Source of the DNA: an uncultured Candidatus Saccharibacteria bacterium
GTDB lineage: Bacteria > Patescibacteriota > Minisyncoccia > Phycocordibacterales > Zambryskibacteraceae
Length of the DNA: 64,000 nt
Assembly: GCA_964349945.1 (NCBI GenBank)
Contig: CAYGIH010000001.1
Location: forward strand, 105,306-169,305
Reading direction: 5' to 3'
The notes beneath the pieces were generated by a model that was given only the letters and a program-made list of their open reading frames with translations, searched no databases and was not told the DNA's origin. Of the stretch, positions 7,228-24,354 are shown piece after piece (within the stretch, counting starts at the first letter, position 1; every line of letters starts with the position of its first letter). A program made the translations under genes and the position numbers.

Positions 7228-7265
7228 TAAAACAGTAATTATTAGTATATAGGACTATAAACTAA

Positions 7266-9608
7266 GTGTATAATAAGGCAATGATTAAGGATTATGTACG
7301 GGCCGCCAATTATTTGAGCGCCATTCAGATTTATTTGTGGGACAATTTTTTATTAGAAAAACCTCTTAGTAGTGATGATATAAAGTCGAGGCTCCTGGGT
7401 CACTGGGGGACTTGTCCGGGGATTAACTTTGTTTATGCGCATTTGAATGACGTCATCATCAGGCACAAACAAGATATGATGTTTATATTGGGCCCAGGTC
7501 ACGGCTTCCCAGCACTTCAAGCCAATTTGTTTTTAGAAAAAACACTCGGGCAGTTTTATCCAGAAGCAACGCAAGATGAGAGTGGAATAAAATATTTGGC
7601 CAAAAATTTTAGCTGGCCGTACGGATTCCCAAGTCACTCAAATCCTGGTGCACCCGGAGTAATCCTTGAAGGTGGAGAACTTGGTTATTCGCTCTCTACT
7701 GCGTGGGGAACAGTTCTAGATAATCCTAAACTAATTACAGTTTGTCTTGTGGGTGATGGTGAAGCGGAGACAGGCGCACTCGCCACTTCGTGGCACCTTA
7801 GCAAATTTGTGGATCCAAAGACAAACGGAGCGGTTCTCCCAATTCTCCACTTGAATGGTTACAAGATCTCTGGACCAACAGTTTTTGGTCGAATGAATAA
7901 TGAAGAATTAAAGGAACTTTTCCATGGATACGGATACGAACCAATTATAGTCGATGGTGGAGATGATGAACTTTATGAAAGGATGCCTGTGGCACTTGAA
8001 ACTTGTTTAGAAAAAATAAAAAAACTTCAAACAGAAGGTAAGGCAGAAGAAGATTCTTATCCTAGGTTCCCTATGATTATTCTTCGAACCAAAAAAGGTT
8101 GGACAGGAGTGAAGGAATCCAGAGGCAGAAAGATTGAGGATAATGCCTTGGCCCATCAAGTGGTTTGTTCTCATGTGAAGAGTGACCCTGAAGAACTCAA
8201 ATCTGTTGAAGCTTGGCTTCGTTCATATAATTTCTCAGAATTGTTTGGTAAAGAAAATGGTTTTACTAAAAGCATCATAGATCTCATCCCACCACCGGAG
8301 CTTGCGATGGGGAACAACAAACACACTTTTGGTTTGAAATACACTGGTCAACCTCTCGACCTTCCAGATGCAGAAAGTTTAATGGAGGATGCGAGTGTCC
8401 CCGGGACTATGGGTTCAAGCAGTATGATCCGTATGTCTCTATATCTAAAGGAAGTTTTCAACAGAAACAAAGAGAGTAAAAATTTTCGCCTCATGTCTCC
8501 GGATGAAACTTATTCAAACAAACTCCAGGCGGTTTTCCCTGAGACCTCTCGAGCCTTTGCTGGACCGATAGAACCTTGGGACATCGACCTCTCACCAGAT
8601 GGACGAGTGATGGAAATGCTTTCTGAGCACTCGCTCCAAGGTTTAGCCCAAGGTTATATATTGACCGGACGACACGCAGTCTTCGCTTCTTATGAAGCCT
8701 TCGTCCAAGTGGTGTCTAGTATGGCAGATCAATATGCGAAGTTCCTCCACGTCGCCAGAGAGATACCTTGGAGAGGAGATATTCCTTCCCTCAATTATAT
8801 TTTGACCTCTAGTGGTTGGAGACAAGAGCACAATGGTTTCTCTCACCAGAATCCAGGCTTCATTGATGCAATGCTCCAAAAGCAAGGATGTTTTGTGAAG
8901 GTTTTCTTCCCACCAGACGGAAACACCGCACTTGCAGTACTTGAACAATGTCTAAAGTCTAAAAATGAAATCAACTTAATTGTGGCTGGTAAGACTGTTG
9001 AACCAAGGTGGCTCGATGAGAAGTTAGTGAAGCAGGAACTCCAGTCGGGGTTAATGACTTGGGACTTCGCCAGTGATGAAAATCCTGATTTGATTTTCTC
9101 TGCTGCTGGAGAGTATCTGACCAAAGAAGCTCTCGCTGCCATGATGATAATTCGAGAGAAATTACCCGAAGTTAAACTACGCTATGTGAACATTTTGGAG
9201 ATCTCAGCTATAGGTATAGGCAACTCAATGTGTAAGGTGCCCATGCAGTCATTCAATGATTATTATATGGAGGACAAGCCTGTTATCTTTAATTTCCACG
9301 GTTATCCAGAGACACTCAAGCAGGTTTTGTTTGATCACCAAGATGGTAAGAACAGATTTTATGTTCATGGTTATACAGAAAATGGTTCGACCACCACACC
9401 ATTTGATCTTCACCTTAGGAATAAAACCAGTCGCTATGATTTGGCCATTGAAGCCTTTAGAATCTTGGCCGAAAGGAATCTTATCTCTACTGCAGAAGCA
9501 GAACAGTTGATCGAAGAATTCACTCGCAAGATATCTGCTCATCATGAATATATTGTGAAGAATGGAGTGGACCCAGAAGAAATTAATAATTGGAAGTGGC
9601 AAAGATAA
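7266..9608 (+). CDS. xfp: xylulose-5-phosphate/fructose-6-phosphate phosphoketolase
   Basis: 780 aa. Signature motifs GHWGTCPG…GPGHG…EGGELGYSLS, with a TPP-binding fold. Confidence 0.85.
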   Translation: MYNKAMIKDYVRAANYLSAIQIYLWDNFLLEKPLSSDDIKSRLLGHWGTCPGINFVYAHLNDVIIRHKQDMMFILGPGHGFPALQANLFLEKTLGQFYPEATQDESGIKYLAKNFSWPYGFPSHSNPGAPGVILEGGELGYSLSTAWGTVLDNPKLITVCLVGDGEAETGALATSWHLSKFVDPKTNGAVLPILHLNGYKISGPTVFGRMNNEELKELFHGYGYEPIIVDGGDDELYERMPVALETCLEKIKKLQTEGKAEEDSYPRFPMIILRTKKGWTGVKESRGRKIEDNALAHQVVCSHVKSDPEELKSVEAWLRSYNFSELFGKENGFTKSIIDLIPPPELAMGNNKHTFGLKYTGQPLDLPDAESLMEDASVPGTMGSSSMIRMSLYLKEVFNRNKESKNFRLMSPDETYSNKLQAVFPETSRAFAGPIEPWDIDLSPDGRVMEMLSEHSLQGLAQGYILTGRHAVFASYEAFVQVVSSMADQYAKFLHVAREIPWRGDIPSLNYILTSSGWRQEHNGFSHQNPGFIDAMLQKQGCFVKVFFPPDGNTALAVLEQCLKSKNEINLIVAGKTVEPRWLDEKLVKQELQSGLMTWDFASDENPDLIFSAAGEYLTKEALAAMMIIREKLPEVKLRYVNILEISAIGIGNSMCKVPMQSFNDYYMEDKPVIFNFHGYPETLKQVLFDHQDGKNRFYVHGYTENGSTTTPFDLHLRNKTSRYDLAIEAFRILAERNLISTAEAEQLIEEFTRKISAHHEYIVKNGVDPEEINNWKWQR

Positions 9609-9612
9609 ATCT

Positions 9613-10596
9613 ATGAAAATTTTAACTGTCAATGTAGGAAGTGAATCAAAGAAGTACACATTGTTTGTAGATGACAAAGAGATTTGGAATGTTCACATAG
9701 AGGAGCGTGATGGACAAATCGGAGAGGATAAATTAAATGAACAGTTTGATTGTATTGCCTTTCGAGTAGTGGCTCCGGGGACATATTTTAGGGAACACAG
9801 ACTAATAGGTGAGGAATTCTTTAGACAACTTACGGTGGCCAGGGAAAAGGCCCCCCTCCACATAGACAGAACTTTTATTGAGATACAGTTTTTCAAGAGT
9901 CGATTCCCTAATACTAAGATGGTGGCTATTTCTGATTCAGCCTTTCACTCGACCCTTCCTGACTATGCACGACTTTATGCCTTACCACTCGATGATGCTA
10001 AGAAGTTTGATATAGAACATTTTGGATACCACGGCATCTCACTCTCATCTATTGTTGAAAAATTGAAAGCAGAAAATAATTTGAAGGACAGAATTATTGT
10101 TTGTCACCTCGGCGGAGGTTCAAGCATTACAGCGATAAAGGAAGGTAAAAGTATTGATACCTCTATGGGCTTCACTCCACTTTCTGGTTTAACTATGGCG
10201 ACGAGGGTAGGGGAAATTGATGCTGGGGCACTTGTTTATCTCTCGGAAGTGAAAAATCTACACGGAGAAAGATTTGAAGAATATCTTGGTAATCAATGTG
10301 GCTTCCTAGGCTTCGCTGGGACTCCAAGTATGAAGCAACTACTTGATGAAGAAAAGACAAATGAAAGGGCAGAGCAAGTTATAAGGATGTTTGTCTATCA
10401 AGTGCAGAAATATATTGGGGCTTATGCTGTGGCACTTGGTGGTTTGGATTTATTGGTTTTCTCCGGAGGCATCGGTGAACCATCTGAGCCTATCCGCTCA
10501 AAAATTCTTGCTGGTATTGGTGCTCTAAAGGAAAATGTTTTAGTTGTGCCTACGGACGAAGCAGGGGAGATGAATAGAATTGCAAAGGGGATATAA
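9613..10596 (+). CDS. ackA: acetate kinase (short form)
   Basis: MKILTVNVGSESKKY… resembles the ILVLNCGSSS N-terminus. HLGGGSSITAIKEGKSIDTSMGFTPLSGLTMATRVGEIDAG is the acetate/propionate kinase signature. Immediately downstream of xfp. Confidence 0.8.
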   Translation: MKILTVNVGSESKKYTLFVDDKEIWNVHIEERDGQIGEDKLNEQFDCIAFRVVAPGTYFREHRLIGEEFFRQLTVAREKAPLHIDRTFIEIQFFKSRFPNTKMVAISDSAFHSTLPDYARLYALPLDDAKKFDIEHFGYHGISLSSIVEKLKAENNLKDRIIVCHLGGGSSITAIKEGKSIDTSMGFTPLSGLTMATRVGEIDAGALVYLSEVKNLHGERFEEYLGNQCGFLGFAGTPSMKQLLDEEKTNERAEQVIRMFVYQVQKYIGAYAVALGGLDLLVFSGGIGEPSEPIRSKILAGIGALKENVLVVPTDEAGEMNRIAKGI

Positions 10597-10629: not shown

Positions 10630-10640
10630 TGATATGAAAA

Positions 10641-10667
10641 AAGACCCATATTATACTCGTGGGTCTT
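10641..10667 (-). terminator. rho-independent terminator for the minus-strand gene ending at 10685
   Basis: aagaccca…tgggtctt hairpin, with a T-run on the minus strand. Confidence 0.5.
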
Positions 10668-10684
10668 CTACGAGGGTGATTTGT

Positions 10685-10927
10685 TCAGATGTGAGCGGGG
10701 CGGAGCTCGCATTCACGCACACCGAAGCCAAATTTCCTTTCGAGGAATTCGATCACATATTCTGGTTCTCCTTGTGACCATTCCCCGGGTGATTTGAGCC
10801 GAGTGATTCGGCAACGTTTGTTGTCATTGATTCTGACACCAGACGTGCCTCGGTTTATGAATATGCAAACCTGACCAACATGATATCTGTGCCGAACTGG
10901 TTCATCAGCTGTCATGCTGATCTCCAT
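10685..10927 (-). CDS. hypothetical protein (elevated-GC gene)
   Basis: 80-aa ORF. Overlaps the upstream gene by 23 nt. GC is clearly above background. Confidence 0.4.
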   Translation of the reverse strand: MEISMTADEPVRHRYHVGQVCIFINRGTSGVRINDNKRCRITRLKSPGEWSQGEPEYVIEFLERKFGFGVRECELRPAHI

Positions 10928-11276
10928 CGTAAGGCGCGATTTTCAGCTCACGCTTGAGTCGCCTCTCTCGCTCTTCGAGGTGGTAGAGCTGGACTCGATC
11001 GCTGTCAATTGCAGCAGAACGCTTGGCTCGACGGGCATTCCAGGCATCTGTGCTGTAGTCTTCGGCTCTGTCCATACTTCGGACATCAGCGGTCATCTGG
11101 ATGATGCTCGTACTAAACTCGAGAATTCGCTTCTGAACATCTGCGAGTTCGGTCTGCTTCTTTTCAACCTTGCGCTTCTTGTACTCTCGCACCGCGTCCT
11201 TGATGACACCAGAGCTGAGAAGTAGAATTGCAAGGACAAACAGCAGAACAAAGATGTCGATCACGTAGCGCATCAT
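10905..11276 (-). CDS. hypothetical membrane-anchored coiled-coil protein (elevated-GC gene)
   Basis: N-terminal transmembrane segment (VIDIFVLLFVLAILLL) followed by a charged coiled-coil region. 123 aa. Confidence 0.45.
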   Translation of the reverse strand: MMRYVIDIFVLLFVLAILLLSSGVIKDAVREYKKRKVEKKQTELADVQKRILEFSTSIIQMTADVRSMDRAEDYSTDAWNARRAKRSAAIDSDRVQLYHLEERERRLKRELKIAPYDGDQHDS

Positions 11277-11424
11277 GTTGCCTCTGGCCGAAGCCGTAGG
11301 GGAATGAACGAAAAGAACTTTGTTGTAATTTTAGCATAAATTTCTTCAAAGTCAAGTTTGATTTATATATAAAAAAGTCCATGCTTAGAGGAAGTAAATT
11401 CGCTTATAAATAACAATAAAAACA

Positions 11425-11688
11425 ATGATAGACCCAACCAAACTAGACTTGAATCAATTACCAAAGAAATTCTGCGATGGAGCCATTGGGGCGTATGGGA
11501 AGGACCTTTTCTCTTTCGTCCTCACTTCTGGGAACAACCTCGACTCCTTCGCCACCACTCCGCAAGTGATGAAAAGCATAGCCGTTTGGATGAATGGCCA
11601 AATCCAAGATTATGAAAAGAAATTTGGAGTCATAGACATGACCCCTCCTTCAATCCAAAGCCCGATTCAAATTGCGGATTTGAAATAA
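11425..11688 (+). CDS. DUF3467-like small protein
   Basis: …PQVMKSIAVWMNGQIQDYEKKFGVI… resembles the conserved C-terminal block of DUF3467 proteins. Confidence 0.5.
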   Translation: MIDPTKLDLNQLPKKFCDGAIGAYGKDLFSFVLTSGNNLDSFATTPQVMKSIAVWMNGQIQDYEKKFGVIDMTPPSIQSPIQIADLK

Positions 11689-11726
11689 ACTGATGCAAGG
11701 ACAGTCCTTGCTTAATGTTCATGTTG

Positions 11727-11762
11727 ACAACATTGTTTTAAGTGCTACTATAAAAATGTGAA
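11727..11762 (+). promoter_or_regulatory. sigma70-like promoter (TTGACA … TATAAA)
   Basis: ttgaca-N17/19-(c)tataaa. Lies upstream of the leader ORF and the MFS gene. Confidence 0.4.
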
Positions 11763-11778
11763 AGCAATAATAAACATT

Positions 11779-11889
11779 ATGAATAAGCGTCTTATGAACC
11801 TAGAAGCCTTCTGGGGTTATAAGCCTGTATCTGTCACTCATGACAATACACTTACGCTCAGTCGTGATGTTTCTCATTTGCAAAGTTAA
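11779..11889 (+). other. putative 36-codon leader peptide ORF (MNKRLMNLEAFWGYKPVSVTHDNTLTLSRDVSHLQS)
   Basis: ATG…TAA ORF between the promoter and the attenuator hairpins. Not in the ORF track because it is under 60 aa. Confidence 0.35.
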
Positions 11890-11918
11890 AATCTCCTATT
11901 AATTAGCACCTAGAAATC

Positions 11919-11963
11919 TCCCGACTGGACGAAAGTCGGGATTTTTCGTCCCAATTTGTCCAG
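11919..11963 (+). promoter_or_regulatory. attenuator-like alternative hairpins (terminator/antiterminator) in the 5' leader of the MFS transporter gene
   Basis: cccgac…gtcggg followed by aTTTTTcg. Overlapping alternative pairings ggacgaaa/tttcgtcc and ctggac/gtccag. RBS aggag lies just upstream of the ATG at 12005. Confidence 0.45.
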
Positions 11964-12004
11964 TAATTGTTCTTTTACTAGCTAACCACACACAGGAGCG
12001 AACA

Positions 12005-13195
12005 ATGTTAAAGAAATTGATTCGGCAGTACTATCTCTTGTCGTTCCTGTTCTCAGCAGGCGGCATGGCGATCATCAGTGCGACGTACGTCACTTTCCTC
12101 ATTCACAACGGTTTGAATTTGTTCGAAGTGAATTTGGTCAATGCGATTTTCTTTTTCACCCTCTTTATCTGCGAGATTCCAACCGGAGCCTTCGCAGATA
12201 TTTTCGGGAGGAAGCAATCGTTCGTGATGGCTTGTGCCATCACATCTCTCTCGATGTTTGTGTACGGTTTGTCCCATACATTTTGGGGCTTTGCTCTTGC
12301 AGAAAGTTTGGCCGCAGTTGGCAACACTTTCAGGAGCGGTGCCTTTCAAGCATGGTTCGTGGACAGCCTGAAGCATCATGGTTATGAAGGTTCTTATACC
12401 AAGCTTTTTGGGAGGGAGAGTCTTTATAATCGAGTCGGTGGCGGTCTCGGTTCTATCACTGGAGCTTATATCGCCGTTGTGAATCCCGCGTATCCATGGT
12501 TTTTGGGCGGGAGCATTATGTTCGTGATGACACTCATTGCCCTCAAGGTGATGAAGGAAGAATATTTTGTCCGACAGAGTTTCTCTTGGAAGAATGGTTT
12601 GAACAAGATGCTCGAGGTGGCGAAGACCAGTGTTCACTATGGAGCCACCCACAAGCCAGTGAGGTTTATCCTCATCGTCACCTTCATCGAGATCTATGCT
12701 GTGCAGGCCATCAACATGTACTGGCAACCGTTCTTTAGGCAGAGTGGAGTGAATGAACAACATCTTGGATTTCTTTTCTCTGGGATGATGCTCATGGTTG
12801 CACTCGGTGCCTACCTCGTCTCTCGGATGAACACAGAGGGCAAGGAACGAGTGATGATACTCTGGTCCATGATGTTCGTCGGGGTGATGATTTGGATAGC
12901 TTCTTTGTCACCTTGGCTCTCTGGAGCTATCCTTGCTTTCCTTCTCCACGAAGGAGGTAGGGGATTTTGGAATCCGATGAGCGACAGCTATCTCCAACAG
13001 AGGATTCCCTCCGAGGAGCGGGCAACCATCTCTTCATTCTGTTCGACGGCTCCGCACATCGGTGGGGCAGTCGGGCTCCTCGTGAGCGGTGGTATTGCCC
13101 AGATGTTTGGGATAACTGCTTCGTGGATGGTGGGTGGTGCGGTGCTCGTAGTCGGAGCATTTCTCGTTCGTAAAAACGGTTATGATTCGACCTAG
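12005..13195 (+). CDS. MFS transporter, drug:H+ antiporter-like (elevated-GC gene)
   Basis: 12-TM protein of 396 aa with MFS motif A (GAFADIFGRKQSF). GC about 50% against a background of about 35%. Confidence 0.75.
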   Translation: MLKKLIRQYYLLSFLFSAGGMAIISATYVTFLIHNGLNLFEVNLVNAIFFFTLFICEIPTGAFADIFGRKQSFVMACAITSLSMFVYGLSHTFWGFALAESLAAVGNTFRSGAFQAWFVDSLKHHGYEGSYTKLFGRESLYNRVGGGLGSITGAYIAVVNPAYPWFLGGSIMFVMTLIALKVMKEEYFVRQSFSWKNGLNKMLEVAKTSVHYGATHKPVRFILIVTFIEIYAVQAINMYWQPFFRQSGVNEQHLGFLFSGMMLMVALGAYLVSRMNTEGKERVMILWSMMFVGVMIWIASLSPWLSGAILAFLLHEGGRGFWNPMSDSYLQQRIPSEERATISSFCSTAPHIGGAVGLLVSGGIAQMFGITASWMVGGAVLVVGAFLVRKNGYDST

Positions 13196-13201
13196 AAACT
13201 C

Positions 13202-13233
13202 AAACGGTTTGTCCAACGACAAACCGTTTTTTA
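13202..13233 (+). terminator. rho-independent terminator
   Basis: aaacggtttgtc-caac-gacaaaccgttt followed by tttt. Confidence 0.7.
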
Positions 13234-13343
13234 TTACAATTTTATGGCTTAACAGAGGGATATTTATGCTTGACTTTTATAATTAAATATGTTTATATAC
13301 TCGTAGAGTAATTGCACGCCAACCACCATCAGAGGGCTCGAAA

Positions 13344-13634
13344 ATGGGAGAAAAGAAACGGCTACTGCTCCTCGTCGAAGAACTTCCTTCCCAGATGAGA
13401 TCGGTTATCAAGGCATTTCATCCGACCGCGGGAGGGTTCATCGTCGAGGAAGCCAGTTCCGAACATGATGTTGAACAGGTGGGTGGGCAAACCAAACAAG
13501 ACGGGATGCTCATCACTAGCTATCAGCAACGCAAGACTGGTGAACTGTTTTTCCGTGTTGTTGACACGCGGGATAACTGGAGCACCAAGTGGTACAGGGC
13601 GCTCGCCCTCACACAACAAACTCAAATCGCCTAG
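13344..13634 (+). CDS. hypothetical protein (elevated-GC gene)
   Basis: 96-aa ORF followed directly by a terminator. The overlapping antisense ORF 13362-13625 is considered spurious. Confidence 0.4.
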   Translation: MGEKKRLLLLVEELPSQMRSVIKAFHPTAGGFIVEEASSEHDVEQVGGQTKQDGMLITSYQQRKTGELFFRVVDTRDNWSTKWYRALALTQQTQIA

Positions 13635-13654
13635 ATAATTAGGCGATTTTTTTT
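13627..13654. terminator. bidirectional terminator
   Basis: tcgcct-agataatt-aggcga followed by T8. Confidence 0.6.
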
Positions 13655-14711
13655 ATGCAGTTTTGGGGATAGGGAATTCTTGGGTTTCTTGTGTAGGAGC
13701 GATTTTTTGAAATTCTTTTATCATATCTATTTTGCTCAAATAATTTCTGTATACATCCACATAATTTCCATTTTGTATTTCATAGCTAGCATAATTTCTA
13801 GATTGCTTACCTTTGTATTCATATGCAGGTGTAGTGAGACTGTGTGATTTGAAATAAGAATCATGAATACCCAAAGAGTTTCCAGCATCTATTGGTTCAA
13901 CACATGCTACCCAGCTTCTTCCCATCATGTCTGTTCCAAAGGTATATAAAACTGTTTTATCATTTGAATAAAAACTTGAAAGTATTATGTTTCCATATAA
14001 AAAGTTTTCTTGAGTCCAAGTATCAAAAGGATGTTCAAAATCTGGTGCGTGGCTATCTGAAACCTTGACATCTTCTGGTGCCAATCTGGGTTCAGTTTCT
14101 TTTGTTTCGTTAATTACTAGTTCTATTGGTTTACTTGGAATTCTTCTTCTGTAAGTTGTGTTTTCTAATCTTTCTTCGACTAAATTTTTTGATGTTGAAT
14201 AAAATATTTTCATAGAGTCTTCTTGGGTTTCAACAGGGTCAGTATTTTGAGCAAGATAAGATAAAACTCTTTGGATTGAATGTGTGACAGAGACATTTTG
14301 TTCATCATGTCCCTTATCAAATAATTGCAATGCGGGTATGTTTATATAACTGGGCAAGTATTTAAAAACTCCATGAGAATTACTCAAATAATAACTACGA
14401 GCAGTGTAAGTATTGTTTCCTTCTTTTGTATAACCTATAAATGCAATCCTGTTGTCATCAATAATAAATGGACGAGAAAAAGCGAAAATCCTCTCATAAC
14501 CTTCAAACATTATCGCATAAGGCTCCACCCCATTTCTTTTATACATTTCTGGATCTTTAGGATCTTTTTCTCCGGCATGAATTTGGGTTTTGGACAAAAT
14601 CATTTCAGCCATTTCATCTGAAAGAAGCTCAAGCTTTACTTTGGTGCCGGTAGTGCTCTCAAATCTTAAATCTGTTTTTGAACCTTCGTTATTTTCTGGA
14701 AGTTTCTCCAT
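13653..14711 (-). CDS. hypothetical protein (352 aa, soluble, no recognisable motifs)
   Basis: Long ORF with AT-rich codon usage, no transmembrane segment or signal peptide. Adjacent to a tRNA cluster. Confidence 0.55.
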   Translation of the reverse strand: MEKLPENNEGSKTDLRFESTTGTKVKLELLSDEMAEMILSKTQIHAGEKDPKDPEMYKRNGVEPYAIMFEGYERIFAFSRPFIIDDNRIAFIGYTKEGNNTYTARSYYLSNSHGVFKYLPSYINIPALQLFDKGHDEQNVSVTHSIQRVLSYLAQNTDPVETQEDSMKIFYSTSKNLVEERLENTTYRRRIPSKPIELVINETKETEPRLAPEDVKVSDSHAPDFEHPFDTWTQENFLYGNIILSSFYSNDKTVLYTFGTDMMGRSWVACVEPIDAGNSLGIHDSYFKSHSLTTPAYEYKGKQSRNYASYEIQNGNYVDVYRNYLSKIDMIKEFQKIAPTQETQEFPIPKTA

Positions 14712-14718
14712 AAATTTG

Positions 14719-14790
14719 TGACCCTACAGAGAGTCGAACTCTGCTTCCATCCTTGAAAAGGATGTGTCCTAACCGATAGACGATAGGGCC
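14719..14790 (-). tRNA. tRNA-Glu (anticodon TTC)
   Basis: The reverse complement folds as a cloverleaf. Anticodon loop TTTTCAA, T-loop GTTCGACTC. No CCA encoded. Confidence 0.8.
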
Positions 14791-14853
14791 TTAATAACCG
14801 AAATATAGTAACATTTTTGGTCAAAAAGGCAATAAATGCTAATGTAGGAGCAC

Positions 14854-14940
14854 GGAAGAGTGGCTGAGTGGTTGAAGGCACCGGTTTCGAAAACCGGCAT
14901 GGGGGAAACCCCATCGAGAGTTCAAATCTCTCCTCTTCCG
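14854..14940 (+). tRNA. tRNA-Ser (anticodon CGA)
   Basis: Acceptor GGAAGAG/CTCTTCC, anticodon arm CCGGT-TTCGAAA-ACCGG, long variable arm, T-loop TTCAAAT. Confidence 0.85.
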
Positions 14941-14973
14941 CAGATTTGGATTTTGGTATAGAGTAGCCATATT

Positions 14974-15046
14974 GCGCGGTTAGCTCAGTTGGTAGAGCGC
15001 GTCATTGACGTTGACGATGTCAGAGGTTCGAGTCCTCTACCGCGCA
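14974..15046 (+). tRNA. tRNA-Val (anticodon GAC)
   Basis: GCGCGGT…TAGCTCAGTTGGTAGAGC…CGTCA-TTGACGT-TGACG…GGTTCGAGTCC…ACCGCGC-A. Confidence 0.85.
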
Positions 15047-15149
15047 CAGTAAATAGTTTTACTGTGCTTGAGGACTCGAAAAGGTTCTCCTATATTTTTG
15101 AAAAACTCTGTTTTGAAAAAATAGGAAACCTGTACTGAAGCAGTAGGCT

Positions 15150-15173
15150 TCGAGTCCTCTACCGCGCACTCGT
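15150..15173 (+). repeat. direct repeat of the tRNA-Val 3' end (att-like remnant)
   Basis: TTCGAGTCCTCTACCGCGCAC recurs about 105 bp downstream of the tRNA-Val 3' end. An inverted partial copy (GAGGACTCGAA) lies at about 15091. Confidence 0.6.
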
Positions 15174-15186
15174 ATATAATAGGTAG

Positions 15187-16131
15187 ATGAGTTTTGTGAG
15201 GAAATATTTTTTGTGGGTCATATTATTTGCATCATTTGGATATGCATATTTTGGACATATCCCTCAACCTTGTGACAAGCCGATAGAATACAAACTTGGA
15301 GTTTTTGATGAACGTTTTAAGGTATCGAAGACAGACTTCTTAGCTTCTATAAAAAGTGCCGAGAATCATTGGGAGAAGGCGACAGGGAAGAATTTGTTTG
15401 AATACAGTGAGCAAGGTGAACTCGTAGTTAATCTTGTCTATGATGATAGACAAGCCACTACTCAAAAAAATCAAATTCTTGAATTAAACGCGAACCAGAA
15501 CAAAGAATCCGCAGACTCCATCAAGGTAGAGCTTGATAAATTAGAAAATCAATATGAAATAAACAAGAATAGTTACCTTAGTTTCCTAGAGACCTTTAAG
15601 GCTCGAGAATCCAAGTATTCTACAGAGGTCAGTTATTATAATGCTCGAGGTGGTGCACCTAAATCGGAGTACAACAGACTAATACAAGAGAAGCAAAGTT
15701 TGGATGAACAGGGTGTAATTCTGGAATCAAAAAGAATCGCTTTGAATAATTTGAGTAATGAGATAAATGATTTGGTTAAAAAGCATAATGTCTTTGTGGC
15801 AGACGCGAATGAGAATATTAATACTTTAAACCAAACTGCGGGTAAGGAATTTAACGAAGGGGAATATATTATGGATAGAAATGGGGAAAGAATAAATATT
15901 TATGAATTCACTTCAAAAACAAAGTTGGTGAGAATCCTCGAACACGAGCTCGGCCACGCCCTTGGACTCGAGCATGGGCAAGATTCAAATGCCATAATGT
16001 ATTACCTTAATCAAGGCGAGAATTTGATTCCAACCACAGAAGATAAAATGGCAGTAGAGAAGGCTTGTGCAGTCAGCAAAACCTATTTACAAAAAGCGTT
16101 TGATATGATACAATCTATACAGATTAGGTGA
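15187..16131 (+). CDS. membrane-anchored zinc metalloprotease, matrixin/metzincin-like (HExxHxxGxxH)
   Basis: N-terminal transmembrane segment, central coiled coil, and a C-terminal ILEHELGHALGLEHGQDSNAIMYY zinc-binding motif with a Met-turn-like residue. Confidence 0.65.
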   Translation: MSFVRKYFLWVILFASFGYAYFGHIPQPCDKPIEYKLGVFDERFKVSKTDFLASIKSAENHWEKATGKNLFEYSEQGELVVNLVYDDRQATTQKNQILELNANQNKESADSIKVELDKLENQYEINKNSYLSFLETFKARESKYSTEVSYYNARGGAPKSEYNRLIQEKQSLDEQGVILESKRIALNNLSNEINDLVKKHNVFVADANENINTLNQTAGKEFNEGEYIMDRNGERINIYEFTSKTKLVRILEHELGHALGLEHGQDSNAIMYYLNQGENLIPTTEDKMAVEKACAVSKTYLQKAFDMIQSIQIR

Positions 16132-16169
16132 ACCAAGAAGTTCCACCACGTACATTGTGAGGTAACACC

Positions 16170-16934
16170 ATGAGGACGAGAATCGTGTTTCTGGGCCTGC
16201 TTTTGGCCCTTGTAGCACCACTCGGGGCGCAGACGGGCAAGCCGTTTGTGAAGTTCCCGCAGACGAAGGAAAGCCTCGCTCGAGCCATCGAGTACGGCCA
16301 GGACGGCGACATGAAGGTTCTCAACATCACCGCGACGGACTTCGTCAAGGAGATGAATGAGATCTACAATCTCAAGTTGGAAAATCGCGAAGACCTCGCG
16401 AATCACTTGAGAAGCTTGACTGAGATGAGGTTGCCTCAGGGCATCTCGATTCACTTCGGTCGTTTGATCGGTTCCAAGCCTGACGACAAGGGTTGGGAGA
16501 GACCCGCGCATGAGAATGAGTATGGGCTCTTAAACAAGGTGACCCAGCGCATTGAATTGTCGTTGTGGTGTGGCAACCCGACGCCCGGACTTTTGTTCGA
16601 ACCGAAAGTACCCGAGCGATTGGTGATGACTCAGGTCGAGTCACCTGAACCGGCACCTGTGTCTTCGGCACCAACGACGACGAACGCTCAAGTGGGTATC
16701 ACCACACCGACCAAGGTCGAAGTGGTGGTCTCAGGAGAAGTCAAACTCACTCCGAACACTTCGAGACGTGAGACTCATCGCAGAGTTGAGCGGAGCCACT
16801 GGTCCCGCAACTGGGGCTGGTACGTTGGGAGCTTGATCACTGGCGTCGTAGGCTACTACGCCATCGACAACAACCCTCAATGGTTCAGAAGGAGTAGGGA
16901 TGTCATTGACATTGACATCAAACTGCACCGATGA
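16170..16934 (+). CDS. secreted hypothetical protein (elevated-GC gene)
   Basis: Signal peptide MRTRIVFLGLLLALVAPLGAQ. GC about 58%. No known motifs. Confidence 0.5.
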   Translation: MRTRIVFLGLLLALVAPLGAQTGKPFVKFPQTKESLARAIEYGQDGDMKVLNITATDFVKEMNEIYNLKLENREDLANHLRSLTEMRLPQGISIHFGRLIGSKPDDKGWERPAHENEYGLLNKVTQRIELSLWCGNPTPGLLFEPKVPERLVMTQVESPEPAPVSSAPTTTNAQVGITTPTKVEVVVSGEVKLTPNTSRRETHRRVERSHWSRNWGWYVGSLITGVVGYYAIDNNPQWFRRSRDVIDIDIKLHR

Positions 16935-16940
16935 CAACAC

Positions 16941-16966
16941 AGAGCGACCTCGGTCGCTCTTTTTCT
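16941..16966. terminator. bidirectional terminator
   Basis: agagcgac-ctcg-gtcgctct followed by ttttt. Confidence 0.65.
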
Positions 16967-17893
16967 TTAGTTAGTTTTGTGAACGTATAAATAAATATCT
17001 TCTAAGGCCTTCACAGCGTCCCCTGCAGCAATATTGTTTTGATGATAGAGACCATCGGTGCAATCTCCAGCGGCCCAGAGTCCATCTACCACAGAGCGTT
17101 GATTTTTTGGATCTACTGGGATTTGTTTGTTTGTATTTAGTTCAACTAATCCTAGGACGAGTTGTGTAGTAGGGACGAGACCTATTTCTACAAATATTCC
17201 AGTGACATTTAATTCCTTATCTTCTCCAGTGGTTAAATCTGTATAAACAAGAGAGGTGACGAATTGTTCTCCTTTAATCTCTTTAGGCACTGCATTTTTT
17301 ATTAAAGTGAATTTTGGATTTTTTAAAACTGCTTCGATTGTTGATTCATCGGCCCTTAACACATCACTACGGACTAGCATGGTGACAGACTTCGCATAAG
17401 CGAGGAGTTGAGCTGCTGATTCAAAGCCTGCATTACCTGCACCGATGACAACTACGTCTTGGTCAGAGAACATTGGGCCATCACAAGAAGCACAATAAGT
17501 GATACCTTTGTTCTCAAATTCTTTGGCTCCGGGTACATCTAGTTTTCTGCGAGTAGAACCGGTAGTAATGAGAACAGTTTTGGCTTCAAGTGTTTCCTTG
17601 TTTGTTTCAACTTTAAAAATATTATCTGTTTTTGAAATTCTAGTGACTCTTTCACCAAGTTTAATATCTACATAATTTTCTGCATAAGCACGGAGATGTT
17701 GTTCAAGTTGCTTGCCCAAATCTATACCAGAGATTTTCACCGTGCCTATCCAGTTTTCTACTCCGACTGATTCAGTAGACTGACCCCCAATTGATTCGGC
17801 TATGAGAACTGTTTTGAGTCTTTTCCTCGCTGCATAAACACCTGCAGAAACTCCTGCTGGACCACCACCAACAATTATTAAATCGTATACCAT
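16967..17893 (-). CDS. trxB: thioredoxin-disulfide reductase
   Basis: FAD-binding GGGPAG, redox-active CASCDG, NAD(P)-binding GAGNAGFE. 308 aa. Confidence 0.85.
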   Translation of the reverse strand: MVYDLIIVGGGPAGVSAGVYAARKRLKTVLIAESIGGQSTESVGVENWIGTVKISGIDLGKQLEQHLRAYAENYVDIKLGERVTRISKTDNIFKVETNKETLEAKTVLITTGSTRRKLDVPGAKEFENKGITYCASCDGPMFSDQDVVVIGAGNAGFESAAQLLAYAKSVTMLVRSDVLRADESTIEAVLKNPKFTLIKNAVPKEIKGEQFVTSLVYTDLTTGEDKELNVTGIFVEIGLVPTTQLVLGLVELNTNKQIPVDPKNQRSVVDGLWAAGDCTDGLYHQNNIAAGDAVKALEDIYLYVHKTN

Positions 17894-17961
17894 AGTTCGT
17901 CTAGAATAACAGAAAAATTTTTAAATGAAAAATCCGCTCCTATGTACTAGGAGCGGATTAT

Positions 17962-18417
17962 CTAACGCATCAAATCCTTGAGTGCTACTTGCTTGGCTCG
18001 CCACTCGCGAAAGCGTGGATTGACGAAGAGGAAAATCCCTCCGACTGCCACCGCAGATACGAACGTCTTGGGGAAAAGGACGAATAGCTCAGCCAACCAC
18101 AATCCTAGGAAAGCTCCACAGAAGAGCCAAATACCTTCTGCGTAGTCGCCCCCCAAGAGTGACGTGATGAGGGCAAAGCAGGCGAGCAGGGTGGTGATGG
18201 TGACAGCGAAGCTGTGCTCATTCATATAGGTGAACAAGAGACCAGAGAAGAAGCAGATGCTCGGGATGACTAGCACCAGTCCGTTCTTCTTCTTCACTTG
18301 TTTACGGAACCAATGAATAAGGCCCACAAAAAGTGCAGTCATGGAACCTCCAGAGGGTGGGGAAGCGGAAAGTGTCTTCCAATATAATAACACAAATTGC
18401 AAATTTTGCAATATCAC
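17962..18417 (-). CDS. hypothetical integral membrane protein (elevated-GC gene)
   Basis: Four or more hydrophobic helices. GC well above neighbours. Start codon uncertain; an internal Met (MTALF…) is also possible. Confidence 0.45.
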   Translation of the reverse strand: MILQNLQFVLLYWKTLSASPPSGGSMTALFVGLIHWFRKQVKKKNGLVLVIPSICFFSGLLFTYMNEHSFAVTITTLLACFALITSLLGGDYAEGIWLFCGAFLGLWLAELFVLFPKTFVSAVAVGGIFLFVNPRFREWRAKQVALKDLMR

Positions 18418-18442
18418 TTGAGTAACATCCGATGTTGCTCAA
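18418..18442. repeat. palindromic motif TTGAGyAACATCCGATGTTGCTCAA, copy A
   Basis: 25-bp near-perfect inverted repeat next to a terminator hairpin. The same motif recurs at 23959-23983. Confidence 0.6.
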
Positions 18443-18468
18443 AAAACCACCCTTGCGGGTGGTTTTTT
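18441..18468. terminator. bidirectional rho-independent terminator downstream of ftsZ
   Basis: A6-accaccc-ttgc-gggtggt-T6. Confidence 0.75.
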
Positions 18469-18480
18469 GCTTGTTCTTAA

Positions 18481-19665
18481 TTATTTTAGTTTTGAACGGC
18501 GGAGGAAGGCAGGCACGGCACCCCAGTCATCATCATTATCATCTTTGACCGAAGGGGCAATGACTTCTGTATTTTTCTTTTCCTCTGTCAGAGGTTTCTC
18601 TATAACCTTTTCTACTGGCTTGGAGAAGATGGGCATACTGTTAAATATTTTATCTTTACCATCCTCAACTGGAGTGTTCTGGAAAAGGGAAGTAGCCTTG
18701 CGTTGAACATTATCAGGGAAACTTGCAGCGATGACGGTGATCTTGACTTCACCCTTCTTGAGTTTGTCATCCTTGACTGTCCCAAAGATAATCTTCGCAT
18801 TAGAATCCACTGATTCGGTGATAACCTTGGCTGCATCTTGAATTTCAAACATAGTGAGGTCGTCACCTCCAGCGATAGAGAAGAGTACACCTTTTGCCCC
18901 AATGATAGAAACTTCAAGGAGAGGGCTTGAGATGGCTAGACGAGCTGCTTCTTCTGCACGCTTTTCACCTGTGGCGTGTCCTATACCCATGAGAGCTGCA
19001 CCAGCGTTTTCCATAATTGAACGAATATCAGCGAAGTCTATATTGATGATTCCTGGAGTAGTGATGAGATCAGAGATACCTTCTACGGCTTGTTTGAGGA
19101 TATTGTCGCATGAAGCGAAGGCGTTTTTGGCTGTAGTATCTTTGTCTATAGTGGCGAGTAAGCGGTCGTTAGGAATGAGAATAAGGGCATCTACTGACTG
19201 CTTTAATTCTTCTATACCAGCCTCAGCAATTTTCATTCTTTGAACCCCTTCGAAGAAGAAAGGTTTTGTCACCACAGCCACAGTGAGGCAACCAGATTCC
19301 TTGGCAGTCCTTGCGATAACAGGAGCGGCACCAGAACCAGTTCCACCACCCATACCACAAGCGATGAAGACCATGTCTGCTCCTTTGATTGCTTCTTGAA
19401 TTTCTTCTTTTGTTTCTTCGACTGCACGTTTACCGAGTTCAGGATTCATCCCTGTGCCCAAACCTCTGGTTAGGTTCTTTCCTATGTGGATTTTTTTCTT
19501 AGCTAAGGCGTGATGTAAATCCTGTGCATCTGTGTTTACTGAAATGAAATCAACACCCTTCACTTTGGAGTTAATCATGTGATTAACTGCATTTTTCCCT
19601 GAACCTCCAACACCGATGACTTTGATCCTTGCGAATGCTTCAACTTCTGGTTTAATTTGTGGCAT
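18481..19665 (-). CDS. ftsZ: cell division protein FtsZ
   Basis: [13 protein letters not shown]…[12 protein letters not shown] tubulin/FtsZ signature. 394 aa. Confidence 0.95.
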
Positions 19666-19782
19666 GTTTGTCTGATAAATTCTCGTCTTTTAATGTGCCC
19701 ATAGTACAGAAAGCTCATGCAAAAGAAAACCCATTGACATTTTCCTTATAAGTTTTCTTTTTTAGCCCTAAGAATAACGGTT

Positions 19783-20985
19783 TTATGGGAGAAGTCCTTT
19801 GAACCACTCGACAGTCTTTTTTATTCCATCTTGTCCTGAAGAGACAACTCTATCCAATCCTCTTGTCCCAATACTCATCCTTTCGTTCTCTGCATTGAAG
19901 CCAAATATAGCTAAACCGTAAGCCACAGACCATGTTGAGTCTTTTGTTTTAACTTTATCTTCACTACCAAAATGTATGTCACCAATATTGGATGGAAGTT
20001 TTAGAGAATGTTCTGCAAATTCTTTTATAGTAGAAATAGCGGCACTCCCACCAGTGAGGATAATACCTGCGGGTAAGAGAGCGTTGCGTCCGATTTTCTT
20101 TAGATGAACTTCGATGAGTTCAAACATATCAGACAATCTCGCGTTCACAATTTCTTCTAATTTCTTTCTTGAATGATTTGATTTGGTTAGAGAACCAAGC
20201 TTGATTGACTCAGCTTCCTCTAAGGGCACTTTTAATCCTAGGGCTATATCATTGGTTATATCTGTCCCACCGATAGGGAAGACTTCTATAGAAATCGGGG
20301 TATTGTTCTCATAAACGACTATTGATAGGGTTTCCGCTCCAATGTTTGCGAGCAAACATCCAGCCTTTTTTTGTTTCTTAGAAAGTGTGACGAATGATGC
20401 AGCGATAGGAGAGGCTACAACATCAATGACTTCTATATCTGCATCTTCTACTGATTTAATTAAATCTTGGAGGTGATGTTCAAGGCACATTATAAAAAGT
20501 ATTTTGGCTTCCAGTTTTTGAGCCTTGAGTCCTTGGGCTCGTCCCCAAACTACCTTGCTGTCAATTTTAAATTCAACGGGGATAGTATTAATAATTTTCT
20601 TATTTAAGGCGATGGAGTGGGGAATAGCTGATTCGGCGGATTCTTCAACTTTGGTTATATCAAGATCGGTGATTTCTAAATCAGCTCTTGAAATAATTGT
20701 CGAACCACTAGCTGTCACCCCAGATAGACCAATACCACCCACAGAAACGAAAGCTCTCTTTACCTTTACTCCAGCCATTTTTTCTGCCTGAGCTACTGCT
20801 TGTTCAATGTTTTGAGTAACCTCACGGCCACTGGTGATATAGCCGTGGTGAAGACCTTTGGATTCAGAGAAACCGGTACCAATTATTTTGGGGACGATAT
20901 TATTTCCTTCTTCTACTTGTTCAGCAATAACCACACGTACGTGGAAAGTGCCTATATCAATGCCGGTAGCAATGTGGCGAGCCAT
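19783..20985 (-). CDS. ftsA: cell division protein FtsA
   Basis: Actin-like ATPase pattern (IATGIDIGT…) located upstream of ftsZ. 400 aa. Confidence 0.85.
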   Translation of the reverse strand: MARHIATGIDIGTFHVRVVIAEQVEEGNNIVPKIIGTGFSESKGLHHGYITSGREVTQNIEQAVAQAEKMAGVKVKRAFVSVGGIGLSGVTASGSTIISRADLEITDLDITKVEESAESAIPHSIALNKKIINTIPVEFKIDSKVVWGRAQGLKAQKLEAKILFIMCLEHHLQDLIKSVEDADIEVIDVVASPIAASFVTLSKKQKKAGCLLANIGAETLSIVVYENNTPISIEVFPIGGTDITNDIALGLKVPLEEAESIKLGSLTKSNHSRKKLEEIVNARLSDMFELIEVHLKKIGRNALLPAGIILTGGSAAISTIKEFAEHSLKLPSNIGDIHFGSEDKVKTKDSTWSVAYGLAIFGFNAENERMSIGTRGLDRVVSSGQDGIKKTVEWFKGLLP

Positions 20986-21344
20986 TAAATTTTAAATTTT
21001 TTTCGCAAAATTCTTTCTGCTCGCTCCATTGTATCTCCATGATCGAATCCTTTCAAATGCATGAGGCCGTGGATAAAGAGATTTCCAACACTAAAACCAT
21101 TCAAATGAGATAAATTTATAAAAATTTCTCCAGAAGTTTTAGAAAGTGGGAACGACAAAACGTTTGTTTGTTTGTCTTTGTCCCTATAAGTCTTGTTCAA
21201 CTTCCTAGAAAGTTTACTGCCACAAAAAACAAGCGAAAGTTCATAACTTTTCCCTAAAGCCTCATTTTTTATTGACTCAAAAGGCAAGGATTTTACCTTG
21301 CCCTTGGTAGTATTTCTTATACTAAATGTATCCATAATAGACAC
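20985..21344 (-). CDS. ybeY: rRNA maturation endoribonuclease YbeY
   Basis: HGLMHLKGFDHGD (H3xH5xH zinc motif). 119 aa. Confidence 0.8.
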   Translation of the reverse strand: MSIMDTFSIRNTTKGKVKSLPFESIKNEALGKSYELSLVFCGSKLSRKLNKTYRDKDKQTNVLSFPLSKTSGEIFINLSHLNGFSVGNLFIHGLMHLKGFDHGDTMERAERILRKKFKI

Positions 21345-21348
21345 CGGA

Positions 21349-21603: not shown

Positions 21604-21631
21604 ATAGGGGGTCACTTTAACATATAGCCTC

Positions 21632-23414: not shown

Positions 23415-23430
23415 TTGACACAATAGACAC

Positions 23431-23958: not shown

Positions 23959-23983
23959 TTGAGCAACATCCGATGTTGCTCAA
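23959..23983. repeat. palindromic motif TTGAGCAACATCCGATGTTGCTCAA, copy B
   Basis: Perfect 12-bp arms around a single centre base. Followed by a terminator hairpin. Confidence 0.6.
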
Positions 23984-23985
23984 AT

Positions 23986-24343: not shown

Positions 24344-24354
24344 ATAATGTTGTA

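Follow-up and report, generated by a model that had tools for sequence, protein, structure and literature searches.

GC-rich transcription units in an AT-rich Zambryskibacteraceae genome: apparent persistence and possible selection for RNA structure

Segments of atypical GC content are routinely read as recent horizontal gene transfer (HGT), and in episymbionts of the Candidate Phyla Radiation (CPR) this reading prompts guesses about the host. We analyzed a window of 64,000 nucleotides (positions 105,306 to 169,305 of contig CAYGIH010000001.1, assembly GCA_964349945.1) from an uncultured Candidatus Saccharibacteria bacterium placed in the Zambryskibacteraceae, in our analysis a Zambryskibacteria-like Parcubacterium of the CPR. 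Ten GC-rich open reading frames (ORFs) and two GC-rich non-coding blocks (GC 0.57-0.60), which we call patches and which make up about 11% of the window, are scattered through its AT-rich background. We consider it somewhat better than an even bet (probability about 0.55) that the patches are long-lived, partly mobile transcription units whose GC is maintained by selection for RNA structure. The case shows that the usual inference from atypical GC can fail: the genes are GC-rich in every low-GC relative, have co-diverged with their neighbors, and have their homologs within the phylum.

The HGT islands and islets of the Lawrence-Ochman amelioration framework are discrete segments with deviant GC and codon usage that lie in variable slots between core genes, and they are more often AT-richer than their host. 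The patches are likewise discrete, deviant, and placed in variable slots, and one of them, a unit encoding an MFS transporter, has demonstrably been exchanged between lineages. They differ from such islands in being GC-richer than the host, in consisting of one transcription unit each, and in having no integrase, tRNA target, or flanking repeat; their deviation also outlasts near-saturating synonymous divergence, and their homologs are confined to the recipient's phylum. Integron cassettes resemble the patches as single-gene mobile units, often for membrane, secreted, or function-unassigned proteins, and as positions whose content is swapped among relatives. The patch units, however, are scattered over several slots, each with its own promoter and terminator, and neither an IntI integrase near them nor an array was found (attC sites were not searched for). 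GC-biased gene conversion (gBGC) also raises GC at third codon positions (GC3) in a gene-specific way, G and C alike, whereas the patch offset is far larger, is accompanied by excess folding and by an asymmetry in favor of the sense strand, and includes slowly evolving genes and genes for non-coding RNAs (ncRNAs).

At the RNA level, the closest described systems are the GC-rich structured ncRNAs OLE, GOLLD, ROOL, HEARO, and raiA. Large structured ncRNAs are found by the GC-rich intergenic region approach, in Breaker-lab pipelines such as DIMPL (PMC8723152, PMC11109978). Like these RNAs, our two blocks are long (~500-675 nt) intergenic stretches of high GC within an AT-rich genome; they share with the OLE-type RNAs their own promoter and terminator and a strong folding z-score, and for block 2 an alignment of three sequences contains some compensatory changes. 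They differ in that the 4227 families of Rfam 15 gave no hit at the gathering threshold and only chance-level matches at E<=10, in that block 2 is present in just three closely related genomes and block 1 has positional analogues only, and in that the block interiors change fast between conserved ends.

For coding sequences, the nearest parallels are the genome-scale ordered RNA structure (GORS) of some RNA viruses and the work of 2003 in which Katz and Burge reportedly described bacterial coding regions as being under selection for local secondary structure of the mRNA. Common to these and to the patches is that coding sequence beats its synonymous-codon shuffles in folding, and as in GORS the excess runs throughout the gene, with no conservation of particular pairs. 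The excess seen here, in contrast, belongs to a DNA genome and only to a compositionally distinct subset of its genes, where it goes along with a GC3 offset of +0.2-0.35; neither the rest of the genome nor ordinary GC-rich genes share it. Our search of the full-text literature yielded no account of persistent GC-rich, structure-rich genes, or of the RNAs of the two blocks, in Patescibacteria.

Composition and persistence of the patches

The window has a GC content of 0.405, with a median of 0.395 in 200-nt windows, so that the background coding GC of ~35% estimated in an earlier, sequence-only reading of this DNA was slightly low. The elevated patches themselves were borne out, all of those listed being GC-elevated where that reading had placed them, as judged from a 300-nt profile and a per-ORF table. 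GC is 0.53 at 10801-11200, 0.49 climbing to 0.54 in the MFS gene, 0.52 at 13301-13600, 0.54 at 16101-16950, 0.53 at 17951-18350, 0.60 at 25601-26350 (block 1), 0.57 at 55251-55800 (block 2), 0.57 at 55851-56750, and 0.52-0.55 at 57901-59550. tRNA genes account for two lesser GC bumps, at 14.7-15.0 kb and at 35.85-36.43 kb. The description of the patches as discrete units of one or two genes also held, with a promoter-like site and an intrinsic terminator in most.

Background GC3 is 0.319 +/- 0.049 with a maximum of 0.43 (52 window genes), and the ten patch ORFs have GC3 values of 0.48-0.69, or 3.4-7.6 standard deviations over background, without overlap of the two ranges. The sequence-only reading had allowed that the difference might prove insignificant; the difference in GC3 is significant (Mann-Whitney p = 7e-7), and codon usage differs strongly. 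Among the codons affected are AAG (0.79 in the patches vs 0.35 in the background), CCG (0.45 vs 0.06), ATC (0.61 vs 0.22), and ACG (0.32 vs 0.05). G and C at third positions are each about twofold more frequent in patch genes, four-fold sites included, and the amino-acid usage of the proteins has moved toward residues whose codons are GC-rich. We ruled out translational selection for C-ending codons, since third-position G and C are raised equally and amino-acid usage is shifted as well. The initiation regions of patch genes are not significantly AT-richer than the remainder (GC3 0.51 vs 0.59).

The contrast in composition would, taken alone, speak for GC-rich fragments of another organism joined into an AT-rich contig during assembly or binning, and a chimera of this kind had been named as something that would overturn the earlier reading. 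The Logan assembly of run ERR3094292 (L001) matches window positions 14992-29665, a span that includes the genes g16170 and g17962 and block 1, without a single mismatch in 14,674 bp. The window is likewise identical to contigs assembled from two other runs, ERR3094293 and ERR3094302, and to one from ENA ERZ27247817. Because the GC junctions are 100% identical in these four independent assemblies, the mosaic is not a chimera; in addition, the same layout recurs in sister genomes and metagenome-assembled genomes (MAGs) from unrelated studies, and the promoters and terminators match the host type and are conserved. We regard the chance of an assembly or binning artefact as negligible.

For comparison we used relatives anchored on FtsZ, which are MAGs labeled Minisyncoccia, Zambryskibacteria, Parcubacteria, or Paceibacterota. 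The nearest sister genome, L006, has FtsZ, FtsA, and TrxB proteins 97%, 94%, and 84% identical to those of the window. Two sister genomes, L086 and L176, share block 2 and the lipoprotein gene beside it, all three genomes being closely related. A pair of genes for a small membrane protein and an SPFH/Band-7 protein, here called the SPFH pair, is shared with L166, L167, and the P0005 contig; the window, L166, and L167 represent three genera. Synonymous divergence was taken as the fraction of identical residues encoded by different codons and was also normalized to saturation.

In L006, g16170, g17962, and the MFS gene lie at the same sites as in the window and are GC3-rich there too. The synonymous divergence of patch genes is 0.36-0.44, against 0.34-0.43 for their neighbors (0.69-0.70 against 0.56-0.70 when normalized). 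Since patch divergence equals that of the flanks, the patches predate the splits from L006, L086, and L176. Recent, un-ameliorated import is contradicted by these same-site sister copies with their flank-like divergence. The lipoprotein is 84% identical in L086 and 80% in L176, is under purifying selection, and has the synonymous divergence of its flanks. The g16170 protein is only 43-49% identical to its L006 homolog, with synonymous divergence at 0.70 of saturation compared with 0.56-0.70 in the flanks. For both g16170 and g17962, normal synonymous divergence combined with very high non-synonymous divergence indicates fast-evolving envelope proteins and not swapped alleles. The g16170 family was found in nine species, is confined to Zambryskibacteria-type loci, and has GC3 above the local value in all nine, by +0.08 to +0.36.

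The SPFH pair extends this comparison across genera. It is syntenic in L166, L167, and the P0005 contig, in the order Exo ... DEAD helicase, LOG, FKBP, Pol III delta', RRF, M50, and its amino-acid identities, 74/57% (core genes 50-84%) and 57/49% (core genes 52-59%), are within the core range. Its synonymous sites, like those of core genes, are at 0.85-0.94 of saturation, and its GC3 offset of +0.2-0.35 is still present. For the small protein and the SPFH protein, respectively, GC3 is 0.73 and 0.77 in L166 and 0.53 and 0.60 in L167, where local values are 0.31-0.47; the SPFH gene alone has 0.64 in the window (local background ~0.32), 0.77 in L166 (~0.42), and 0.60 in L167 (~0.38). Retention of the offset at such divergence in three genera speaks against a composition that is ameliorating toward the host. 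An unselected donor signature should have vanished after near-saturating turnover, so that the high GC appears to be maintained and not a relic.

Orthologs of the MFS gene have GC3 values of 0.50-0.67 across host backgrounds of 0.33-0.70. Because its GC3 stays steady while that of the host varies, the gene is conspicuous only in low-GC hosts. Both the MFS and the lipoprotein genes are under ordinary purifying selection.

Predicted RNA structure

Windows of 240 nt were folded and compared with synonymous-codon shuffles that keep the protein sequence, codon usage, and GC3. The patch genes of the window had a mean z of -1.77 with 20 of 20 windows negative, against -0.03 in the background (p = 1.3e-5), and a dinucleotide shuffle gave the same excess. 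The patches of L166, L086, and L006 gave z values of -1.6 to -2.2, and ordinary genes of the uniformly GC-rich relatives L028 and L043 and of the phage-like contig L168 gave +0.24 to -0.50. In a set of 26 low-GC genomes, 47 GC3-elevated ORFs had a z of -1.52 vs -0.36 for 110 background genes (p = 1.5e-8), and GC3 excess was correlated with folding z (rho = -0.40, p = 3e-7). When the shuffling of codons was confined to individual 240-nt windows, the patches had a z of -1.99 (97% of windows negative) vs -0.20 and -0.23 in controls. An artefactual origin of the excess was rejected, as it survives dinucleotide, whole-gene codon, and within-window codon shuffles and the control with genes of GC-rich genomes. 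The excess was stronger on the sense strand (-1.65) than on the antisense strand (-1.13; Wilcoxon p = 4e-4), which points to RNA rather than DNA; the difference is modest, most of the pairing being strand-symmetric.

Block 2 (55239-55775, plus strand) is a predicted RNA gene for a structured ncRNA of ~500 nt, with a putative transcript at ~55274-55775 that has a multi-domain body. Its promoter (55239-55267) reads TTGCAA-17-TATATT, an intrinsic terminator with a T-run lies at 55746-55764, and the block folds with a z of -4.3 to -4.6. In L086 and L176 its homologs keep the promoter and terminator around a variable center, whose indels have lengths not divisible by three, and the three copies have no ORF in common. 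An RNAalifold consensus contains 114 pairs, seven of them with double compensatory changes, and four of the eight pairs of the 5' hairpin covary, in an alignment of three sequences only.

Block 1 (25650-26361, minus strand) would encode a structured ncRNA of ~675 nt, transcribed from ~26326 to 25650. The promoter at 26361->26333 reads TTGACA-17-TAGGAT with an extended -10 TG, and a 13-bp helix, in which 26312-26300 pairs with 25707-25695, encloses the whole body. A 3' hairpin at 25688->25664 followed by a U-tract to ~25650 is apparent on reading the sequence, although the terminator scan did not flag it. The minimum free energy is -302 kcal/mol on the minus strand (z -5.9) and -313 on the plus strand (z -9.5). 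No ORF of 60 aa or more occurs on the minus strand of the block. Immediately downstream of block 1, in the same orientation, is the S1-domain gene at 24405-25529, whose conserved leader occupies 25530-25640. The promoter is conserved in one relative, L022, and was seen in the window and L022 only. L022 and a second relative, L031, have positional analogues with a terminator hairpin and T-run before the conserved S1 leader and GC-rich bodies with z of -4.9 and -3.1. The body of block 1 could not be aligned with these analogues, and the sequences that other species have in the S1-MBL slot are mostly unrelated to block 1 and to one another.

The lack of a match in Rfam means that no known family accounts for the two blocks. 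At the gathering threshold, Rfam identified only tRNAs in the window and in the loci of seven relatives. An nhmmer search with both blocks and four patches against 160 related loci gave matches only in L086, for block 2, and in L006, for g17962. The sequence-only reading was correct about the high GC of the non-coding blocks and had counted them among the imports; their promoters, terminators, and fold strength mark them instead as structured RNA genes. We take blocks 1 and 2 to be, in all probability, separately transcribed structured RNAs whose high GC reflects RNA structure. The coupling between GC and RNA structure is explicit for the two ncRNAs and only statistical for the mRNAs.

Mobility, homologs, and alternative explanations

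Comparison of its sequences shows that the MFS cassette was clearly exchanged horizontally among Parcubacteria. In the relative L181, an MFS unit with 85% amino-acid identity lies between DoxD and the DEAD helicase, the slot occupied by the SPFH pair in the window. Core proteins of the window and L181 are 49-73% identical (DEAD, 87%) with synonymous divergence at 0.85-0.97 of saturation, and the MFS value is 0.60. Homology between the two copies spans exactly one transcription unit, starting in the promoter region and ending after the terminator; the leader is ~95% identical from a short upstream ORF (uORF) onward, and the terminator stem has compensatory differences. Among the units compared, the MFS cassette was the only one found to be closer than the core genes while standing at a different locus; the SPFH pair, g16170, g17962, and the lipoprotein gene were not.

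The slots themselves are polymorphic. In 38 relatives in which the S1-MBL slot could be delimited, it measures less than 320 bp in 18 and 460-2478 bp in the rest, where the inserts are mostly GC-rich and mostly unrelated. The Exo-DEAD slot holds the SPFH pair in the window and L166, another GC-rich island of at least 3.8 kb in L086, and the MFS unit in L181. The ftsZ-trxB slot, which holds g17962 in the window, is empty in most relatives, as read from coordinates. No flanking direct or inverted repeats were found at the patch borders, and no recombinase was found among the genes neighboring the patches. The proposal of repeated horizontal acquisition stands in part: the MFS cassette has been exchanged and slot contents vary. 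Most patches are long resident, and the exchange is within Parcubacteria.

The best named matches of the SPFH protein are in Parcubacteria bacterium C7867-005 (74%), Yanofskybacteria, and other Patescibacteria, and its sole named homolog outside Patescibacteria is one Bryobacteraceae protein (52%). Named homologs of the MFS protein are from Patescibacteria throughout, with uniform lengths and identities that fall smoothly from 86% to ~50%. The lipoprotein family is an orphan: a set of 5.8 billion proteins contained only three clusters of it, and these all belong to this species group. None of the homologs of these three proteins is actinobacterial or points to a high-GC group, which tells against the donor that the earlier reading had suggested. 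In a published survey, 83% of detectable transfers into Patescibacteria came from other Patescibacteria and a single event came from Actinomycetota (PMC12455944).

Phages were considered as a general source and rejected, because scans of IMG/VR gave only distant SPFH homologs (41-45%) with the GC of their own contigs; g16170 had no match in these scans and the lipoprotein one weak match. The contig L168 (Logan SRR21397094_16525, 165.6 kb; locus 1-21272) is phage-like, with GP88, an integrase, RecA, a class II RNR, a dUTPase, and a peptide deformylase. It has a uniform GC of 0.58 and GC3 of ~0.67 and encodes an SPFH homolog 60% identical to that of the window, which makes it a candidate vehicle or recipient for the SPFH gene. 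A GC-rich phage of this type was also rejected as the source of the patches, since neither its ordinary genes nor its SPFH copy has the folding signature.

Strongly atypical composition and codon usage, amino acids included, discrete units with their own signals, slot contents that vary among relatives, and the presence among GC3-rich genes of the classic HGT candidates purC (L166) and pyrE/pyrF (L167) would all fit repeated recent acquisitions, not yet ameliorated, from a high-GC donor, possibly an actinobacterial host. We nevertheless consider this model very unlikely. The homologs did not point to Actinobacteria or another high-GC group, the sister copies at the same sites have flank-like synonymous divergence, and the SPFH pair has kept its high GC3 through near-saturating turnover in three genera. 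Genes of actinobacteria with 65-70% GC generally have a GC3 much higher than 0.5-0.7, so that the patches are ill-suited to such a donor. A relic of donor composition also does not predict that ordinary GC-rich genes lack the folding excess, and the survey figures for transfers into the phylum point the same way. The main rival, in our estimate a rather doubtful one, is a neutral pool of cassettes that circulate among Patescibacteria and GC-rich phages or plasmids and carry the composition of that reservoir (~55-58% GC). Their GC would then be unselected, and the folding excess a by-product of reservoir life or of the transfer mechanism, for example through single-stranded DNA intermediates. 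Such a pool would account for the movement of the MFS unit between lineages and slots, for Exo-DEAD, S1-MBL, and ftsZ-trxB slots that are empty or have different GC-rich contents in relatives, for family GC3 that is roughly independent of host GC, and for an SPFH homolog in a contig of uniform GC 0.58 such as L168. It is harder to reconcile with the co-divergence of most patches with their flanks and with an SPFH pair that has apparently been vertical for long enough to ameliorate. Viral relatives exist for SPFH only, are distant, and have the GC of their own contigs; the ordinary genes and SPFH copy of L168 have no folding excess; the sense-strand bias points to RNA; and mobility genes and border repeats were not found.

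A different kind of account would make the patches recombination hot spots, for instance envelope genes under diversifying selection, in which biased heteroduplex repair raises GC. The joint rise of third-position G and C, four-fold sites included, the very fast evolution of the g16170 and g17962 proteins, and the polymorphic slots are as gBGC would have them, but SPFH, MFS, and the lipoprotein evolve at ordinary rates, and the ncRNA units would be left unexplained. Nor would gBGC lead one to expect better folding than in synonymous shuffles or a bias to the sense strand, and reported bacterial effects on GC3 are far smaller than the offsets of +0.2 to +0.36 seen here. We consider gBGC an improbable explanation.

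Selection for RNA structure, acting on long-lived and partly mobile units, is the reading that we prefer. The patches would be self-contained units (a promoter, one or two genes or an ncRNA, and a terminator) in a flexible gene set of Parcubacteria, occupying a few intergenic slots between core genes; most would be old residents, and some would move between Parcubacteria genomes. GC-richness would be an intrinsic and maintained property of the units and not the fading mark of a GC-rich donor, and the likeliest maintaining force would be selection on the transcripts for extensive secondary structure. Structured transcripts could plausibly be long-lived, or resistant to RNases or to Rho-type termination, in an AT-rich, slow-growing cell. 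What the analysis shows is the contrast in composition, the residence of patches and their co-divergence with the flanks, homologs within Patescibacteria, polymorphic slots, one transfer, the nature of block 2 as an RNA gene, and, with its controls, the excess of predicted folding. We infer the role of RNA-structure selection as keeper of the high GC with moderate confidence, and the purpose proposed for the structure is conjectural. A wider proposal, which we put forward only tentatively, is that Parcubacteria carry undescribed "armored" units, coding or non-coding, whose transcripts are selected for pervasive structure. This selection would keep the GC of the units 15-20 points higher than that of the AT-drifting genome over very long periods. 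The units would be portable because their expression is independent of the RNA-decay and termination regime of the host, and would include at least two new large ncRNA families, represented by blocks 1 and 2.

Several results weigh against maintenance by RNA structure. All of the structure evidence is thermodynamic prediction, and for block 1 the predicted fold of the plus strand is slightly better than that of the minus strand, to which its promoter points. Sister genomes retained the predicted pairs of patch mRNAs no more often than matched random pairs (0.311 vs 0.299, p = 0.27). Since specific pairs are not conserved, foldability in the coding patches would be generic and GORS-like, a statistical excess only, without support from covariation. 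The folding signal across the 26 genomes would be inflated if, as may be the case, some of the short "ORFs" counted there are ncRNAs. Three-taxon polarized counts for the lipoprotein gene gave 46 GC->AT changes vs 23 AT->GC, nominally a net loss of GC, in a test that is affected by a parsimony or majority-rule artefact. As all synonymous sites are near saturation in the SPFH comparison, transfer of the pair after speciation is conceivable. Lastly, with neither flanking repeats nor a recombinase, no mechanism of cassette movement was found.

If the preferred reading is true, the patches would be an unusually clear case of selection at the RNA level shaping the base composition of whole bacterial genes. 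Sequence alone could then flag transcripts that are probably long-lived or specially regulated in ribosome-poor CPR cells, many of them for envelope proteins, and new large structured RNAs would be added to a phylum with few known ncRNAs. Composition-based HGT detectors and "contamination" filters for MAGs would mis-flag such regions.

Individual units and their surroundings

The first patch (10685-11355, minus strand) consists of two overlapping small ORFs and a promoter-like site, TTGACT-16-TAAAAT with a TG, at 11355->11328. The upstream ORF, g10905 (10905-11276), encodes 123 aa with an N-terminal transmembrane helix and a charged coil and has a GC3 of 0.60; g10685 (10685-10927) encodes 80 aa and has a GC3 of 0.48. 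Their folding z-scores against codon shuffles are -2.4 and -5.1, respectively, and neither protein has a notable Pfam, NCBIfam, or PADLOC family. The coding status of this patch is the least certain of all, because the sister loci stop short of 10685-11276. The adjacent g11425 (11425-11688, plus strand; 87 aa) is a borderline member of the mosaic, with a GC3 of 0.52 (z = 4.2) and an overall GC of 0.44, and its only Pfam match, to DUF3467, is below threshold. Among all patch proteins, comparison with PADLOC, NCBIfam, and Pfam gave significant matches only to MFS_1 and Band_7, with no assignment to a defense system.

The MFS cassette (11724-13240, plus strand) is one complete transcription unit. 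It comprises a promoter at 11724-11751, the uORF at 11758-11889 (43 aa from a GTG, or 36 aa from an ATG at 11779), a leader hairpin with a T-run at 11919-11946, the transporter gene at 12005-13195 (396 aa; GC3 0.59; Pfam MFS_1, 1.4e-24), and a terminator with a T-run at 13202-13229. The uORF and hairpin before the MFS start resemble a leader-peptide or attenuator arrangement. They are kept in the relatives L181 and L182 despite a different genomic context, and L181 also has a called 43-aa gene at the uORF position.

Following the cassette is g13344 (13344-13649, plus strand; 96 aa; GC3 0.58), with a bidirectional terminator at 13624-13649. It had no family match in Pfam, NCBIfam, or PADLOC and only a weak 59-nt nhmmer match to L006. 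At this interval L006 has instead a gene for an 818-aa HrpA-like DEAH-box helicase (11473-13929, minus strand; GC3 0.71; folding z -2.6 to -3.0), which lies between its MFS gene and the homolog of window 13653-14711 and has no homolog in the window.

The g16170 unit (16086-16960, plus strand) has a promoter at 16086-16114, the ORF at 16170-16934, and a terminator at 16941-16960. The protein of 254 aa has a signal peptide and a C-terminal transmembrane helix; GC3 is 0.69 and the folding z is -1.5. A perfect 16-mer, CTGCACCGATGACAAC, is present both at 16923-16938, in the last codons of g16170, and at 17437-17452, in the region of the Gly-rich dinucleotide-binding motif of the adjacent trxB. About 0.01 matches of this kind would be expected by chance in 8.3 kb, and the 16-mer could be the microhomology footprint of an insertion beside trxB.

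The g17962 unit (17931-18411, minus strand), with a promoter at 18411->18384 and a terminator at 17959->17931, encodes a small membrane protein with a GC3 of 0.65. A GTG-started frame, 17962-18417, overlaps the predicted promoter of the unit itself, and an internal ATG near 18342, preceded by GGAGG, would give 126 aa. The true start is probably this ATG, because the promoter lies inside the GTG frame and 126 aa fits the L006 homolog, a protein of 123 aa with 44% identity at the same site. In the Logan contig g17962 was left uncalled as a gene.

Downstream of block 2, and always 3' of it, is the lipoprotein unit (55790-56729, plus strand), with a conserved promoter-like TTGACA...GATAAT at 55790-55818 and an ORF at 55863-56729 for a protein of 288 aa with the lipobox LITAC and a GC3 of 0.62. 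The sister copies have an extra Ig-like (Big_2) N-terminal part, and in L086 and L176 block 2 and the lipoprotein gene are placed after Dus. The SPFH pair follows on the plus strand, with g57905 (57905-58156; 83 aa; GC3 0.56), the SPFH/Band-7 gene (58225-59499; 424 aa; GC3 0.64; Pfam Band_7, 3e-8), and a terminator at 59523-59549.

The same mosaic, with other genes, was seen in two relatives whose backgrounds around the GC3-rich genes are 0.31-0.47. L166 has purC (GC3 0.75) and a gene for a 463-aa protein (0.70) at 948-1904 and 12365-13756, and L167 has pyrE/pyrF (GC3 0.51-0.54) and a second Band_7 protein of 617 aa (0.54) at 2432-3714 and 7279-9132.

The window contains 11 tRNAs, at 14718-15047, 35850-36426, 43659-44104, and 45533-45614. 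Several have C34 anticodons, which read G-ending codons only (Lys-CTT, Gly-CCC, Ser-CGA, and Leu-CAA). As these codons are rare in the background and common in patch genes, the GC-rich genes may partly explain the retention of the tRNAs. The 3' end of tRNA-Val (15027-15047) has a perfect 21-nt duplicate at 15149-15169, 122 nt downstream of the gene, which looks like the scar of an element once integrated in the tRNA; it is the only tRNA-derived repeat and bounds no GC-rich patch. Position 14992, within tRNA-Val, is also the end point of two independent Logan contigs.

An ORF of 847 aa at 3639-6182 (plus strand) has GC2 of 0.52, above its GC1 (0.43) and GC3 (0.27), in a stretch with local GC of 0.44-0.47. 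This pattern points to a protein of low complexity with abundant Ala, Gly, Pro, Ser, or Thr, and the cause of the raised local GC is different from that in the patches. Genes for phosphoketolase (XFP) and then acetate kinase at 7266-10596, a fermentative module of background GC, adjoin the first GC-rich patch. The opposite pattern was found in a GC-richer member of the Paceibacteria, L180, in which a low-GC island at 2541-7572 (GC3 0.25-0.34 vs ~0.6) encodes Fic, a BglII-type endonuclease, a DNA methylase, and Schlafen/AlbA_2, a conventional AT-rich island of the defense type.

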